Part shown: piece by piece, positions 1-4,723 of the stretch
Position numbering within the stretch: position 1 is the stretch's first letter
Layout of the letters: each line of letters begins with the position of its first letter
Source of the DNA: a virus
Lineage: Duplodnaviria > Heunggongvirae > Uroviricota > Caudoviricetes
Direction: 5' to 3' (one strand)
IMG/VR virus record: IMGVR_UViG_2703718868_000011
DNA: 4,723 bases
Notes under the pieces: generated by a model
The model's database searches: none
What the model saw: only the letters and a program-made list of their open reading frames with translations
Told to the model about the DNA's origin: nothing
Made by a program: the position numbers and the translations under genes

Positions 1-879
1 ATGAGCAAAAAGCAGAGTTCCACCCCACACGATGCGCTGTTCAAACTCTTTTTACGCCAACCGGACACGGCTCGTGATTTTCTTGCGTTTCATTTACCGG
101 CACCCATTCACGCGCTTTGTGATATGAAAACCCTCAAGCTGGAGTCGAGCAGCTTTATTGATGACGATCTGCGTGAAAGCTATTCCGATGTGCTGTGGTC
201 GGTGAAAACGGAACAAGGACCAGGATACATCTATTGTCTGATTGAACATCAAAGCACCTCAAACAAACTGATCGCATTTCGCATGATGCGTTACGCTATT
301 GCCGCAATGCAAAATCACCTTGATGCCGGATACAAAACGTTGCCGATGGTGGTGCCATTGTTGTTTTACCACGGTATTGAAAGCCCCTATCCCTATTCGC
401 TGTGTTGGCTGGATTGTTTCGCCGATCCCAAACTGGCAAGGCAGCTTTATGCCTCCGCATTTCCGCTGATTGATGTCACCGTCATGCCTGATGATGAAAT
501 CATGCAGCACCGACGTATGGCGCTGCTGGAGTTAATTCAAAAACATATTCGTCAACGCGACCTGATGGGGCAGGTAGAGCAAATGGCCTGCTTATTAAGT
601 AGTGGATACGCTAATGACAGACAAATCAAAGGGCTGTTTAATTACATACTGCAAACCGGCGACGCGGTACGTTTTAACGATTTTATCGACGGCGTTGCCG
701 AACGTTCACCGAAACACAAGGAGAGTTTAATGACAATTGCGGAAAGATTGCGGCAGGAGGGGGAACAATCCAAAGCCCTGCATATAGCCAAAATAATGCT
801 TGAATCCGGAGTCCCTCTTACAGACATCATGCGCTTTACCGGGGTGTCAGAAGAAGAGTTGGCTGCGGCGAGCCAGTAA
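1..879 (+). CDS. Rpn-family recombination-promoting nuclease (YhgA-like, PD-(D/E)xK fold)
   Basis: Complete 292-aa ORF, ATG at 1, TAA at 877-879. N-terminal [10 protein letters not shown] motif and an Asp ... EHQ ... K arrangement (SYSDVLW / [10 protein letters not shown]) typical of YhgA/Rpn PD-(D/E)xK nucleases. Length fits E. coli RpnA-E (about 290-300 aa). The paralogue cannot be assigned without an alignment. Its promoter lies upstream of the window. Confidence 0.8.
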
Positions 880-1032: not shown

Positions 1033-2028
1033 TTATGGGCAAAATCTGGACAACTCCGCAACCGGATTGAACCTTACCGCGTCCTGGAGATAATCAGGTG
1101 CAAAGTGCGCATAGGTCATTGTTTGCTGAATTGTGCTGTGCCCTAAAATACGCTGAAGGGTAATAATGTTCCCTCCATTTATCATGAAATGAGTTGCGAA
1201 TGTGTGCCGTAAAACATGCACAGACTGACCGACTGGTAAATCAGGCCGCACAGTCCTTATTGCACTTCTGACTATCGCATAACTGGGATTCATTAATCTT
1301 CCAGTCGCTTTGACTTTAATCAGAGATTCAAGATCTTTAGCTATAGGAATAACCCGCCGCGATCCATTCTTTGTCTCCATGAAAATAACCTTCCCACCAA
1401 TTATGTGTTCACCTTTAATATTGGCAACTTCACCCCAGCGCCCGCCTGTAGCCAGGCTTAACAATACAGCCTTAAGATTATCGCCAGATAAAAGTGCGGT
1501 TAGCCTGGGAATATCATCATGTGCAAGATAAGCCATTTCCGGCTGATTAATTGTTAGCTTGCGTATCTCGTGAAACGGGTTATCACCCACAAACTCTTCA
1601 ACATCAATCAGCTTTTCAAAGAAACCACTCATCATTGCACAATAACGATTTACCGTTGACTGCTTAATTCCGCGATTCATTAATTCAAGGCGATATCTGA
1701 TAATATTTTTTCGGGTTAAGTGGTCACTTCTGTTAATACCAAGCTCTTGCATATCACGAAGAACCGCTTCAATTCTGACCCGATTCATCGCGCCATAACG
1801 ATGATTCTTACCGTGGTACACCCACCACAGTTCCAGAAGATCGCTTAACGCTTTACGTTCAATAGGTTTTTCGACCCAGTCCTTATCGTGATAATGCGTC
1901 AGAACATGGCGTTCATACATCGCCGCTTCACCACGGGTAGGAAATCGCCGCCGAAATCTTCTTCCTTCAGATCCAGCAGGCCGCACGTCCACACAGTATT
2001 TGCCATCAGCGAGCTTCTTAATCGACAT
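1033..2028 (-). CDS. int: Tyrosine site-specific integrase, P2-like phage integrase family
   Basis: Minus-strand ORF. Preferred start is the ATG at 2028-2026 (MSIKKLADGKY...), preceded on the coding strand by GGGGG about 8 nt upstream; the track ORF extends to 2064 but that start has no ribosome-binding site. Stop is TAA (complement of 1033-1035). C-terminal catalytic signature is present: HVLRHTFATHF (His-x-x-Arg box), GHSTIQQTMTYAHF (catalytic Tyr). About 331 aa, close to P2 Int size. No terminator-like hairpin between the upstream repressor gene and int, suggesting co-transcription. Confidence 0.9.
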   Translation of the reverse strand: MSIKKLADGKYCVDVRPAGSEGRRFRRRFPTRGEAAMYERHVLTHYHDKDWVEKPIERKALSDLLELWWVYHGKNHRYGAMNRVRIEAVLRDMQELGINRSDHLTRKNIIRYRLELMNRGIKQSTVNRYCAMMSGFFEKLIDVEEFVGDNPFHEIRKLTINQPEMAYLAHDDIPRLTALLSGDNLKAVLLSLATGGRWGEVANIKGEHIIGGKVIFMETKNGSRRVIPIAKDLESLIKVKATGRLMNPSYAIVRSAIRTVRPDLPVGQSVHVLRHTFATHFMINGGNIITLQRILGHSTIQQTMTYAHFAPDYLQDAVRFNPVAELSRFCP

Positions 2029-2094
2029 AAGGAAGCCCCCCAATGAAAACATCATCTTGATCACAATTTTGAGAAATAAAGGCCAGATGGACCG

Positions 2095-2394
2095 TTAACC
2101 AGTCTTCTTGCCGGAGTGGGATGATTCCGCTTCGCTTTGCCCAATGTGTGCGAGAGCCGGTACCACCTGCCCGGCCTTTGGTTCGACCTCATCGAACAAA
2201 AACCAGTCACGGTATTTACGGAAACGAGCGTGCCGCAAAAGAAGGATCCCAAAATCAAGAGGCATCTTAGATTTCCCACTTTCATAGCCATGATATGTAT
2301 AGTAATTAATTCCAATTAAATCAGATAGTTCCTTCATTTTCATCCGTTCAGACTCTCTGATAAGTTTTAATTTCTCATTTTGCGGTATTGACAT
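2095..2394 (-). CDS. Small HTH (XRE-like) immunity repressor, P2 C-type by size and position
   Basis: The 117-aa track ORF was re-started at the internal ATG 2394-2392 (MSIPQNEKLKL...), giving 99 aa, with GGAG (complement of 2407-2410) about 12 nt upstream. Helix-turn-helix pattern in MKELSDLIGINYYTYHGYESGKSKMP. It lies directly upstream of int on the same strand and diverges from the rightward early operon, as does the C repressor of P2 (also about 99 aa). Confidence 0.75.
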   Translation of the reverse strand: MSIPQNEKLKLIRESERMKMKELSDLIGINYYTYHGYESGKSKMPLDFGILLLRHARFRKYRDWFLFDEVEPKAGQVVPALAHIGQSEAESSHSGKKTG

Positions 2395-2416
2395 AATTTT
2401 TCTAATCTCCAATAAT
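2388..2416 (+). promoter_or_regulatory. Candidate rightward early promoter (Pe-like), sigma70-type
   Basis: TTGACA at 2388-2393 (perfect -35), a 17-nt spacer, then AATAAT at 2411-2416 (5/6 match to TATAAT). Predicted start near 2423-2425, about 78 nt upstream of the ATG at 2502. The -35 overlaps the repressor start codon on the other strand. Confidence 0.4.
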
Positions 2417-2418
2417 TT

Positions 2419-2436
2419 TTGTGTATAGCAACACAA
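2419..2436. promoter_or_regulatory. Inverted repeat TTGTGT-N6-ACACAA, candidate operator of the lysis/lysogeny switch
   Basis: Perfect 6-bp arms (TTGTGT / ACACAA) around a 6-bp spacer ATAGCA. It overlaps the predicted start of the rightward promoter and the -10 of the leftward promoter candidate. Confidence 0.4.
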
Positions 2437-2501: not shown

Positions 2502-2927
2502 ATGCAAGAAGTCACTCAAAACGCGCCTGAATCGCCTGCCGAAACACAGTGCGATCAGTTGACAGATGCGCCAGAAACCGCACACCTGAAGACCAGCCGC
2601 AAAGCCCCTGAACGCCAGGAAATCCGGCTTTCACAAAACCCTTCTCATCTCCTGTCAAAAGAAGGGTTTGCGATGTATATCGGCAAGACCGTTGACGCCA
2701 TCGTGAGCATGGCAAAAGCAGGGAAATTACCCGCTGTGTACATGGCGGACCCTCTCAAGCCTGGCGGAAACGCCGAACTCTACATCAACCGGAAAGCGTG
2801 GGATGAAGCCTGCGATCGACTCACTGAAAACGCACCGCAAGAATGGCACGAATGGGAAAACCGACTTTTTTTATTTAAGCCAGCAGCTGGTTCACGGAAT
2901 AAACGCATCAGTAAAAAAGCTGCGTGA
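2502..2927 (+). CDS. Excisionase/Cox-like winged-helix DNA-binding protein, first gene of the rightward early operon
   Basis: ATG at 2502 preceded by GGAGG (2489-2493) 8 nt upstream; TGA at 2925-2927; 141 aa. The track ORF begins at a GTG at 2421 with no ribosome-binding site. The segment FAMYIGKTVDAIVSMAKAGKLPAVYMADP resembles the DNA-binding core of Xis/Cox/AlpA-type proteins. Alternative start at ATG 2673 (GAAGGG 6 nt upstream) would give 84 aa, closer to the sizes of P2 Cox and 186 Apl. Position matches cox/apl in P2-like phages. Confidence 0.65.
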   Translation: MQEVTQNAPESPAETQCDQLTDAPETAHLKTSRKAPERQEIRLSQNPSHLLSKEGFAMYIGKTVDAIVSMAKAGKLPAVYMADPLKPGGNAELYINRKAWDEACDRLTENAPQEWHEWENRLFLFKPAAGSRNKRISKKAA

Positions 2928-2957
2928 TATAGAACTGGCAATCATTGGAGGGGCAAG

Positions 2958-3188
2958 ATGATTAAACACACGGAAATCAGACAAAGAATAAAAATAAGCG
3001 ACGACGCTTCAGTAATAATCTGTAATCAGAACTTAGATGCCATTGTTCGGGCTGGCAACGATTTGTATTTCCATTACCCGACCCATTGCATCGTTGTGAC
3101 ATTTGAAACAGAAGAGTCCTTAAAAAATGCAATGGAGCAGACAGGATTTCAGAATGAAACAGTAATAAGAAAAGACAACTGGGCATAA
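2958..3188 (+). CDS. Hypothetical small protein (76 aa), early operon
   Basis: ATG 2958 with GGAGG (2947-2951) 6 nt upstream; TAA at 3186-3188. Only 30 nt after the preceding stop. No recognisable motif. Confidence 0.6.
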   Translation: MIKHTEIRQRIKISDDASVIICNQNLDAIVRAGNDLYFHYPTHCIVVTFETEESLKNAMEQTGFQNETVIRKDNWA

Positions 3189-3240
3189 ATGCCAATACAC
3201 CGTTATTTCAATTCTTTTAACTTAAGCGGGTTTTTCCGAT

Positions 3241-3576
3241 ATGACACAGCGACGCAACTTCCGCACTGGCACAGAACGCCACGCAGCCCGTTTCTCAACC
3301 AGTGCATCACGCAGCAACACGCACTACAGCCTGCAGGAAACGCACGCCACACCTGACGGGCATCCGGTTAAACAAACCGGTAAACACACCTGGCTGATTA
3401 ATGATGCCGGAATTGTCATTCACCGGGGCGCACGCAACCCGATTACCGGGAATACCTGTTACTCCCTGACTCGCGGAGATGAGCAGTTCGGGCAGGATTT
3501 CACCCTGCACGAAGCATTAAGAACGGCAGACCGATTAATCAGCGGTCGCAGTTTTCAGCATCCATGGGGGAATTAA
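3241..3576 (+). CDS. Hypothetical protein (111 aa) in a GC-rich segment; coding status uncertain
   Basis: Longest ORF in the segment and on the operon strand, but there is no ribosome-binding site before ATG 3241 and the N-terminal half is Arg/Thr/Ser/His-rich and low in complexity. The C-terminal half (WLINDAGIVIHRGARNPITGNTCYSLTRGDEQFGQDFTLHEALRTADRLISG) looks more protein-like. Its stop (TAA 3574-3576) lies 3 nt before the next start. Confidence 0.4.
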   Translation: MTQRRNFRTGTERHAARFSTSASRSNTHYSLQETHATPDGHPVKQTGKHTWLINDAGIVIHRGARNPITGNTCYSLTRGDEQFGQDFTLHEALRTADRLISGRSFQHPWGN

Positions 3577-3579
3577 TAC

Positions 3580-3834
3580 ATGGCAACAACGACAAAAGAC
3601 ATGGCAGAGATAGCATCAGCCTACACAATTATCATACACCGGCTCATAGCTAATAATGCCCGTAATGCACTAAATACAGCAAAACCTTTATGGGAAACAA
3701 AAAAAGATATCATCAGCGCATTACAGGGGCTACAGAAATGCGCCGACCTCGCAGGCGATTACGCCGCATACATGGCTATTGAAGACACGATAGAGAAGAT
3801 TGAATCAGGTAAATCATTAAGCGATTTTGTTTAA
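3580..3834 (+). CDS. Hypothetical small protein (84 aa), early operon
   Basis: ATG 3580 with GGGGG (3566-3570) 9 nt upstream; TAA at 3832-3834. Tightly packed behind the previous ORF. Composition suggests a helical protein; no motif recognised. Confidence 0.6.
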   Translation: MATTTKDMAEIASAYTIIIHRLIANNARNALNTAKPLWETKKDIISALQGLQKCADLAGDYAAYMAIEDTIEKIESGKSLSDFV

Positions 3835-3854
3835 TTGTTTTCCGGGGAAATACA

Positions 3855-4097
3855 ATGGACAAAGAATATAAGGTTCTCATCAATAAAGCCCTTGAGCGCT
3901 TTAACTTTCGCCTGAGTATGTCAGGAGTTGCCGCAGAACATGCAGCAAGAGACTCACTGACCAGAGCAATTCGCAGCCTGTATGATGCAGCTTTTTACGC
4001 TGACGATCTGGATGCTCTCAATGAGCTGTCTGAGCTTGTTCGTGATGCAGAATGCGGAGTACATATTGAGCCATACGCACTTGGGAATGCAGCATGA
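3855..4097 (+). CDS. Hypothetical small acidic protein (80 aa), early operon
   Basis: ATG 3855 with GGGGAAA about 7 nt upstream; TGA at 4095-4097, which overlaps the next start as ATGA. No motif recognised. Confidence 0.6.
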   Translation: MDKEYKVLINKALERFNFRLSMSGVAAEHAARDSLTRAIRSLYDAAFYADDLDALNELSELVRDAECGVHIEPYALGNAA

Positions 4098-4219
4098 GCG
4101 TATTTCTTTCATGGGTGATTCTGATTATTTCCGTGCTTATGGCGATTGGCATTATGCGAATTATCGAAGCGCTGAAAAATATCGAATCTTTATTTACTGG
4201 CGAAGAACGCCGTAAATAA
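4094..4219 (+). CDS. Small hydrophobic protein (41 aa), predicted single transmembrane helix; not in the supplied ORF track
   Basis: ATG 4094-4096 overlaps the upstream stop (ATGA), a typical translational-coupling arrangement; GGGA lies about 8 nt upstream. Translation: MSVFLSWVILIISVLMAIGIMRIIEALKNIESLFTGEERRK. Residues 3-24 form a hydrophobic stretch, followed by a charged tail. TAA at 4217-4219. It fills a gap of about 200 bp in an otherwise tightly packed operon. Confidence 0.45.
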   Translation: MSVFLSWVILIISVLMAIGIMRIIEALKNIESLFTGEERRK

Positions 4220-4298
4220 ATAACCAACCGGACAGAAAACATTAAAACCATCCGCATCTGCGGAGGGCTTCACTCAATCCAGAAACGGAGAAACAGCT

Positions 4299-4577
4299 AT
4301 GAGCACCAATACACCTACAGAAATAAACAAACTATTTACCGACCCGGCGCATATTGAATTGACGCAAAAAACGCTGACTGAAATAACCAATGTACTGGAT
4401 GAAAGAATATCAGAAATAGATAAAGACAAGCATTTTGCCACCTACATGGCCCTGCAAATGCAAAGCATGGCAATGGTGACAGCAAAACAGACCATCAGTG
4501 AACTCTATATGAAAAACCTGCGCCTCGAGCGCGAACTGGCAGAACTCCGGGCACAGTCCGGCCAGTTTTCAGCGTGA
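4299..4577 (+). CDS. Hypothetical protein (92 aa) with a likely coiled-coil C-terminus
   Basis: ATG 4299 with GGAG (4287-4290) 8 nt upstream; TGA at 4575-4577. The C-terminal LYMKNLRLERELAELRAQ is heptad-like. No motif recognised. Confidence 0.6.
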   Translation: MSTNTPTEINKLFTDPAHIELTQKTLTEITNVLDERISEIDKDKHFATYMALQMQSMAMVTAKQTISELYMKNLRLERELAELRAQSGQFSA

Positions 4578-4588
4578 GGGGCAGGTCG

Positions 4589-4723
4589 ATGAACAGCATA
4601 TTTACCGCCACCATGCTGACGCGTTTCACCGATGCCGTGGGCCACGAGTTCATGGTGGAAAGTCATTTGATCACAACGACCACGCCGTGCCCGTCAGACG
4701 CTGATTATCTCTACATCCATCTG
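4589..4723 (+). CDS. 5' end of a further gene, truncated by the window edge (product unknown)
   Basis: ATG 4589 with GAGGGG (4576-4581) about 8 nt upstream, 11 nt after the previous stop. Open for 45 codons to the window end (MNSIFTATMLTRFTDAVGHEFMVESHL...). By position in a P2-like early operon it could start a larger replication gene, but the sequence itself shows nothing that confirms this. Confidence 0.45.
   Translation, partial: MNSIFTATMLTRFTDAVGHEFMVESHLITTTTPCPSDADYLYIHL

Follow-up and report, generated by a model that had tools for sequence, protein, structure and literature searches.

The 4,723-nucleotide (nt) stretch of viral DNA analyzed here (IMG/VR record IMGVR_UViG_2703718868_000011, class Caudoviricetes; hereafter the window) contains six small open reading frames (ORFs), O1 to O6, packed between positions 2,958 and 4,577. 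This region probably represents the stretch nearest the promoter in the early lytic (Pe) operon of a P88-like Escherichia coli prophage of the P2 family, organized as a fixed module combined with three slots for exchangeable cargo genes. Sequence comparison of related loci divides the region into two classes of element: a backbone made up of O2, O4, O5 and an RNA stem-loop, and three single-gene slots, A to C, which in the window are filled by O1, O3 and O6. The backbone genes were found in essentially every P88-like locus (92–93 examined) and their order was constant. The three slots are separate from one another and hold unrelated genes or nothing at all in the relatives. A first-pass annotation of this DNA had raised the possibility that the whole position is a variable cargo slot. 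That idea fits O1, O3 and O6, distributed over three slots, but not O2, O4 and O5, which are fixed. The coordinates of all features are collected in Table 1.

The comparison covered 93 related loci: eight annotated Escherichia coli or phage records, three contigs contributed by a one-genome-per-species scan, 80 loci from IMG/VR (of ~250), the window itself, and others. The closest deposited phages are P88, PhiR44_2, Chuche, 520873 and Citrobacter phiSM, all of the genus Xuanwuvirus, which share ~73% nucleotide identity with the window over O2–O5 only. Near matches to the entire cluster were detected in 17 of 5,426 complete E. coli genomes. Slot A is empty in P88 and others, where 37 nt separate cox from the following gene, and elsewhere it carries a 68-aa membrane protein, a 58-aa gene together with a reverse ORF, or a reverse 145-aa gene. 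The alternative contents of the slots are mutually unrelated.

Table 1. Positions of genes, slots and other elements in the window.
Feature	Position	Strand	Description
rpnA	1–879		Host gene at window start; NCBIfam equivalog, 693 bits
Tyrosine integrase	1033–2064	-	
C-type helix-turn-helix (HTH) immunity repressor	2098–2397	-	phrog_147 transcriptional regulator, 4e-33; HTH_19, 1e-5
Pe-like early promoter	2388–2420	+	TTGACA 2388–2393, 17-nt spacer, AATAAT 2411–2416; 11/12 consensus matches (promoter scan)
cox	2502–2927	+	First early-operon gene; PF10743 Phage_Cox, 1e-27, 96 bits; phrog_1831, 6e-50
Slot A	cox to DUF4761		Here O1, 4/93 loci
O1 (76 aa)	2958–3188	+	Slot A; rare single-gene cargo
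O2 (111 aa), DUF4761	3241–3576	+	PF15958, 163.2 bits, 2e-48; phrog_2492, 4e-36
Slot B	DUF4761 to DUF4754		Here O3, 9 loci; relatives: unrelated P88 gp05 type in most, empty in 3 loci
O3 (84 aa)	3580–3834	+	Slot B; minority cargo
O4 (80 aa), DUF4754	3855–4097	+	PF15946, 146.3 bits, 3e-43, full length; phrog_2549, 2e-31
O5 (41 aa)	4094–4219	+	Membrane micropeptide: one N-terminal transmembrane helix, amphipathic charged tail
Stem-loop TCCGC-N4-GCGGA	4251–4264	+	Stem 4251–4255 / 4260–4264
Slot C	after stem-loop		Here O6, ~8 loci; relatives: 136-aa gene, other small genes, or nothing
O6 (92 aa)	4299–4577	+	Slot C; minority cargo
Next early-operon ORF (start only)	4589–4723	+	80 aa in E. coli JNEC-KY202, locus L001 (PGAP coding sequence 15668–15910)

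All six ORFs lie on the + strand, separated by gaps of 52, 3 and 20 nt, then a 4-nt ATGA overlap and finally 79 nt, in full agreement with the lengths, coordinates and spacing first given for them. Purine-rich Shine-Dalgarno-like motifs precede O1, O3, O4, O5 and O6, bearing out the claim that most of the ORFs have their own ribosome-binding site; that of O2 is weak. The 52-nt spacer upstream of O2 (3189–3240) also holds the right-hand breakpoint (~3212) of the mosaic cassette that carries O1. Ratios of nonsynonymous to synonymous substitution rates (dN/dS) were calculated by the Nei-Gojobori method against relatives that are 60–90% identical, with Cox serving as a control (0.12). Against relatives 60–80% identical, O2 (0.13–0.21), O4 (0.06–0.07) and O5 (0.18–0.27) were found to be under clear purifying selection; conservation as coding sequence in related elements, a point left for checking by the first-pass annotation, is thus plain for the backbone. 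Selection on O3 was moderate (0.40–0.45). The test was weak for O6 (0.40–0.75) and for O1 (0.37), the latter value coming from only 16 substitutions (6 synonymous versus 10 non-synonymous). The C-terminal 20-mer of O6 is preserved despite 5–6 synonymous codon changes. We conclude that all six ORFs are genes, O1 being the least certain of them.

The P2-like setting proposed earlier was confirmed by the presence of an integrase gene, a C-type repressor gene and cox upstream of the cluster. The Cox protein of the window is 35% identical to P2 Cox. The repressor gene is divergent from the early operon, and is also annotated as a coding sequence by the Prokaryotic Genome Annotation Pipeline (PGAP) in E. 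coli JNEC-KY202 (locus L001), which carries a prophage 99% identical to that of the window. The Pe-like promoter overlaps the start of the repressor gene at 2397 and lies 86 nt upstream of cox, and this promoter-repressor geometry matches that of P2 Pe as annotated in the P2 record. An 8-bp direct repeat, TAATTTTT, at 2394–2401 and 2413–2420, just past the -35 element and over the -10 element, provides candidate repressor operators, although the region is AT-rich, so the repeat may have arisen by chance. A similar arrangement is found in the P2 record, where two operators, named O1 and O2 there, flank the -10 element of Pe. Promoter-like sites within the cluster numbered 5, versus 4.6 expected from shuffled sequence, and a consensus scan returned no + strand terminator-like site downstream of cox or in the cluster. 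Given a P2-type promoter and repressor-operator geometry, and by analogy with P2, the six genes are most likely co-transcribed with cox from Pe early in the lytic cycle and silenced by the C repressor in lysogens. By the same analogy, the suggestion that the cluster encodes superinfection exclusion or another prophage-encoded defence is weakened. Early-lytic expression would instead favor small host-directed or regulatory binders over defence proteins produced by the lysogen.

The cluster had also been described as lying between cox and the replication gene. It does begin a string of same-strand genes that follows cox, but it accounts for the first part of that interval only. In JNEC-KY202, six intact genes and an ash pseudogene, all on the same strand, stand between O6 and the replication endonuclease gene. 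Genes for 80-aa and 70-aa proteins and a DNA-binding protein, the ash pseudogene, and genes for a 'derepression protein' and a 138-aa protein are among them, in this order. The endonuclease gene itself lies ~3 kb past the position matching the end of the window, and the A gene is therefore outside it. Because the gene string continues in this way, the six ORFs make up only the promoter-proximal half of the cox-to-A interval.

Two of the backbone genes turned out to have been catalogued already. The first-pass annotation recognized no motif in any of the six products, a statement that does not hold for O2 and O4, which belong to the families DUF4761 and DUF4754 (DUF, domain of unknown function). 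Both matches exceed the Pfam gathering threshold of 27 bits, and that of O2 spans positions 1–99 of the 105 in the PF15958 profile. An AlphaFold (AF2) model of O2 built from a 40-sequence alignment predicts five strands and a C-terminal helix, with predicted local distance difference test (pLDDT) scores of 81–90 at residues 31–100. The N-terminal tail of O2 is basic, arginine-rich and disordered, and the whole protein has an isoelectric point of 10.4. O4 is acidic and is predicted to form three helices in a single-sequence AF2 model (pLDDT 68), which yielded generic bundle matches only. No DNA- or RNA-binding fold was recognized in the O2 model, and neither model had informative structural analogues.

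DUF4761 proteins fall into 98 protein clusters, which share at least 56% identity and come exclusively from Enterobacteriaceae. When 1.84 billion representatives were searched exhaustively with the profile, 25 of them matched, and no link to a known family emerged. Among these 25 are short forms of 64–87 aa without the basic tail, encoded directly after cox or one gene later in P2-like phages of Klebsiella (Reipivirus), Enterobacter and Salmonella (SEN4). In SEN4 (L096 3269–3909), cox is followed by a 67-aa gene, a short DUF4761 gene and then a Fil homologue (PF10893, 4e-18), an order indicating that DUF4761 can adjoin a known cell-division inhibitor. DUF4754 was detected in 14 phage records, all P88-like. 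A distant relative of this family (hhalign 93%, E 3e-7), which the Pfam model misses, is the 125-aa gp06 of Klebsiella phage ST16-OXA48phi5.4, encoded after the short DUF4761 protein gp05 (L095 3097–3708 for the two genes). The occurrence of the DUF4761/DUF4754 pair after cox in a second genus of the Peduoviridae indicates that the pair is older than the genus. Loci without O3 carry a divergent DUF4754 allele, 43% identical to O4, while their DUF4761 protein and micropeptide are 97–100% identical to those of the window. This allele (4637–4879 in L006 and 6677–6919 in L008) accompanies the empty slot B, and from these comparisons O3 and O4 look as if they were exchanged as one cassette.

The third backbone gene encodes a micropeptide and overlaps O4. 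The O5 start codon overlaps the O4 stop codon by 4 nt in all 92 loci (92/92), the peptide is intact in every one of them, and the ATGA arrangement indicates that O5 is translationally coupled to O4. Its length varies from 37 to 41 aa among the loci, and the N-terminal transmembrane segment is nearly fixed (consensus MSIFISWLVLIISV.CAIGIMRII; Kyte-Doolittle 19-residue maximum 2.74). The stem-loop sits ~30 nt past the O5 stop codon in a conserved intergenic element of ~50 nt (within 4223–4286), where the backbone module ends on its 3' side and slot C begins on its left, with cargo starting directly after the stem-loop. Its stem is paired in 99.3% of cells among 30 distinct sequences, compensatory double changes (C-G to U-A) affect two of its five base pairs, and the single-sided changes comprise two G-U wobbles that preserve pairing in the + strand RNA only. 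The stem-loop was considered as a terminator in both orientations. An intrinsic operon terminator was rejected because the + strand has no U-tract, and a terminator for the antisense strand is disfavored by the two wobble variants, whose pairing is limited to the + strand. A scan of the whole window gave no Rfam match for the stem-loop at E up to 1, and a tRNA scan found nothing.

Among the cargo genes, O1 resides in a low-GC insert (~2931–3211; 38–40% GC versus 53–55% in the flanks) bounded by mosaic breakpoints at ~2930 and 3212. Just upstream of it, over the cox stop codon, the sequence TGATATAGA (2925–2933) bears a by-eye resemblance to an extended -10 element; if this were active, O1 would have a promoter of its own. 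O1 proteins form 6 clusters, all at least 88% identical. The exact protein is common in draft E. coli assemblies (1131 index blocks), and all six contexts inspected in such assemblies proved to be the same prophage beside ppa/chpS. No family match was found for O1 in Pfam, PHROGs, NCBIfam or PADLOC or by PDB sequence search, and among 50,697 phage records there was no nucleotide match to O1, only to O2–O5.

O3 may be a highly diverged duplicate of DUF4754: its sequence aligned with the DUF4754 profile by hhalign (38%, E 3e-4), and a weak phrog_2549 match (E 0.1) had the same register, whereas Pfam did not detect PF15946 in O3 and BLASTP of O3 against O4 returned nothing. O6 combines a fast-diverging N-terminal portion, about two thirds of the protein and down to ~30% identity, with a nearly invariant C-terminal helix that bears leucine heptads (L69, L76 and L83) and ends in the 20 residues LRLERELAELRAQSGxFSA (window 4491–4577). 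Its 27 protein clusters are all from E. coli, and O6 is absent from the 50,697 phage records. By sequence clustering, O1 and O6 are thus near-orphans confined to E. coli. In one IMG/VR contig (L015 4415–4903), a single 162-aa frame joins O6 to the cargo gene that follows it. Proposed relationships of O3 to P88 gp05, of O6 to O3, and of O6 to the 136-aa alternative in slot C were tried, and none was found.

Searches for function across the six products returned little. Pfam, PHROGs, NCBIfam and PADLOC yielded the two DUFs, PHROGs with no assigned function, and a weak PDC-M64 match for O6 only (PDC-M64B, 18.9 bits, E 3.7e-4; PDC-M64C, E 3e-3). PDC-M64 matches occurred in 9 of 16 members of the O6 family, none better than 3.3e-4, and the remaining five ORFs had no PADLOC match of any kind at E up to 1, so the cluster holds no partner component for such a system. 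PDB sequence searches with O1, O2 and O6 gave nothing meaningful. In direct comparisons with the early proteins of P2 and 186, Cox alone was matched. None of the six matched the Fil model PF10893 at E up to 1, a model that does detect SEN4 gp39 (4e-18), and neither phmmer nor BLASTP found a match to Fil or Dhr of 186 with E below 0.5. DUF4754 was also considered as a truncated form of gpB, the helicase-loading replication protein of P2; a local identity of 9/18 to the C-terminus of B was seen, hhalign gave 2.8% over 19 columns, and the proposal was rejected. We found no functional literature on DUF4761, DUF4754, PDC-M64 or Xuanwuvirus. Profile scans thus matched no product to a characterized protein, housekeeping or otherwise, and no tool result assigns a takeover or anti-defence activity to any of the six.

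The arrangement of the window is closest to that of P88 and other xuanwuviruses, in which integrase, C, cox, DUF4761, a slot gene, DUF4754, an overlapping membrane peptide, the stem-loop, small genes and a replication endonuclease gene occur in the same order. The P88 counterparts are gp04 (DUF4761), gp05, gp06 (DUF4754) and the membrane protein gp07, all annotated as hypothetical or DUF proteins. P88 differs in lacking O1 and in having an unrelated 92-aa gene at the position of O3 and an unrelated 67-aa gene at that of O6. In P2, the early operon reads cox, orf78, B, a terminator, orf80–83 and A. It resembles the window in the geometry of its Pe/Pc switch, in its homologous Cox and in the small ORFs of unknown function that fill the cox-to-A interval, whereas no homologue of orf78, B or orf80–83 is found among the six. 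The operon of 186 is annotated as apl, cII, fil, dhr, the terminator tR1, CP80–84 and A, and here too small genes, non-essential in 186, lie between an excisionase/repressor gene and a rolling-circle replicase gene and are followed by a structured RNA element. As the first-pass annotation had stated, the equivalent position in 186 is held by fil and dhr, which according to the record block cell division and replication, respectively. None of the six is similar to CII, Fil, Dhr or CP80–84, however, and tR1 is an intrinsic terminator while the stem-loop lacks a U-tract. The stem-loop does lie where both P2 and 186 carry their first early terminator. O1, O3 and O6 resemble morons in being present or absent as single genes between collinear relatives, and O1 also has a deviant GC content. 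The consensus scan recognized no promoter or terminator belonging to them, the by-eye candidate TGATATAGA upstream of O1 aside, and they lie inside an early operon; in contrast to morons, they are therefore more likely to be lytic-cycle genes than genes expressed by the prophage. The described defence hotspots of P2, old/tin and Z/fun, are located elsewhere in its genome.

If the region is indeed the start of a Pe operon, all six genes would be transcribed with cox within the first few minutes after infection or induction; in the lysogen, C would repress them. Their products have no enzymatic domain and are 41–111 aa in size, and would therefore most likely act by stoichiometric binding to other macromolecules. 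The backbone trio may provide an intrinsic early-lytic function, taking the place of orf78/B in P2 and of cII/fil/dhr in 186; position is the sole functional clue for it. The obligatory coupling of the acidic, helical O4 to the membrane peptide O5 suggests that the two could have a joint role at the inner membrane, such as a Fil-like arrest of division or of envelope functions. Such a block is our preferred guess, made with low confidence. O1, O3 and O6 may be strain-variable accessory proteins directed at the host or against its defences. The cargo genes are favored as the better candidates for such proteins, above all the orphan O1 and also O6, in which a variable head is joined to a fixed leucine-heptad tail. 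The most far-reaching version of these ideas is one we consider doubtful as a whole: DUF4761, DUF4754, the micropeptide and the stem-loop would together constitute an early-lytic host-control module that replaces Fil/Dhr or orf78/B, for instance as a two-part inner-membrane inhibitor with a nucleic-acid-binding partner, and the slots would be undescribed sites for lytic-phase cargo encoding new anti-defence or takeover proteins.

Several points weigh against a Pe-controlled operon with a host-directed backbone. Control by Pe and silence in the lysogen are carried over from P2 by analogy, and internal promoter-like sites at 3629–3657 and 3957–3986 may be active, although the number of such sites equals the shuffled expectation. 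The proposed Fil-like role of O4/O5 rests on position and on the predicted membrane insertion of O5, and no similarity to Fil or Dhr was found for either of them; the helical model of O4 is moreover the single-sequence one with a pLDDT of 68. The conservation of the backbone across genera fits a regulatory or replication role equally well. We therefore considered whether the backbone might work for the phage itself, in regulation or DNA replication, its members being functional substitutes for 186 CII or P2 B, and regard this as possible but not probable. The position of DUF4761 after cox is fixed across three Peduoviridae genera, its arginine-rich tail is compatible with nucleic-acid binding, the annotated early regions of P88-like phages list no homologue of B or CII, and a conserved RNA stem-loop occupies the site of the first early terminator of P2 and 186. 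Yet neither sequence nor profile comparison reveals any similarity to B or CII (as seen above for DUF4754 and B), the O2 model shows no recognizable nucleic-acid-binding fold, and a membrane micropeptide would be unexpected in a module of replication or transcription factors.

Another reading, that all six genes are interchangeable takeover, anti-defence or superinfection-exclusion cargo in one variable hotspot, appears unlikely. O1, O3 and O6 do behave as cargo, the combination of a fast-evolving head and a fixed tail seen in O6 is frequent in arms-race proteins, the two DUF4754 alleles differ greatly between nearly identical flanks, and no housekeeping match was obtained for any of the six. 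O2, O4 and O5, however, are retained under strong purifying selection in essentially every P88-like locus, a phage of another genus has relatives of O2 and O4 at the corresponding position, the cargo is distributed over three slots rather than one hotspot, and the PADLOC matches amount to the single weak one of O6. Exclusion or defence would also need expression in the lysogen, against which the Pe context argues. Still less probable is a spurious origin for some of the ORFs: O1, in particular, would have arisen by chance in AT-rich spacer DNA, and O5 would be a by-product of the sequence around the O4 stop codon. For O1 the coding evidence is thin, and this also counts against our preferred reading of six expressed genes: its substitutions are spread 8/6/7 across codon positions with no third-position excess, its clusters are few and nearly identical, and PGAP omits it in two RefSeq genomes (L001 14036–14266; L008 6036–6263). 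On the other hand, O1 has a Shine-Dalgarno sequence of consensus strength at optimal spacing (GGAGGGG), and in a second Cox context, L006, the frame is open and longer, PGAP annotating an N-terminally extended 107-aa protein, while the antisense ORF is disrupted. A by-product origin of O5 is at odds with its intactness in all loci, its low dN/dS and its conserved transmembrane sequence.

Few prophages are commoner in Enterobacteriaceae than those of the P2 family, and to our knowledge the genes between cox and the replicase gene are understood only for P2 and 186. In P88-like phages, the fixed module of this interval can now be separated from its swappable cargo, which defines two units to test: the DUF4761/DUF4754/micropeptide trio on the one hand and, on the other, O1, O3 and O6 as strain-variable and probably host- or defence-directed proteins. 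Should a Fil-like or anti-defence activity prove true, the region would be a source of new small inhibitors of bacterial processes; otherwise it is one more block of phage dark matter. As a phage region it is of an ordinary, if unsolved, kind; two of its genes are already catalogued as DUFs, and the results do not overturn current understanding. New and useful on the descriptive side are the backbone with its three slots, the conserved coupling of the micropeptide and the covarying stem-loop, none of which will surprise phage specialists.

Outside the early operon, the window begins with the host gene rpnA, and the left end of the P2-family prophage is present from ~923 onward. Host rpnA-bioH sequence extends to 946, and identity with the prophage found next to chpS begins at 923. 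The 24 bp common to both sides (923–946), CAACGCCACCAGCAGGTGGCATAA, contain a GCCACC-N4-GGTGGC hairpin and look like an attachment (att) core in the region 880–1032. This prophage was not present at rpnA-bioH in any of the 5,426 complete E. coli genomes (0/5,426), and close relatives adjoin chpS/ppa, dmsB or prpC, which suggests that rpnA-bioH is a secondary or alternative attachment site. Finally, a typical P88-like early region, with a DUF4754 protein 85% identical, was encountered in a contig labelled as coming from a Gram-positive organism (NZ_JBQPOM010000071.1, 'Vagococcus sp. WN89Y'; L012), and probably represents enterobacterial contamination of the Vagococcus assembly.

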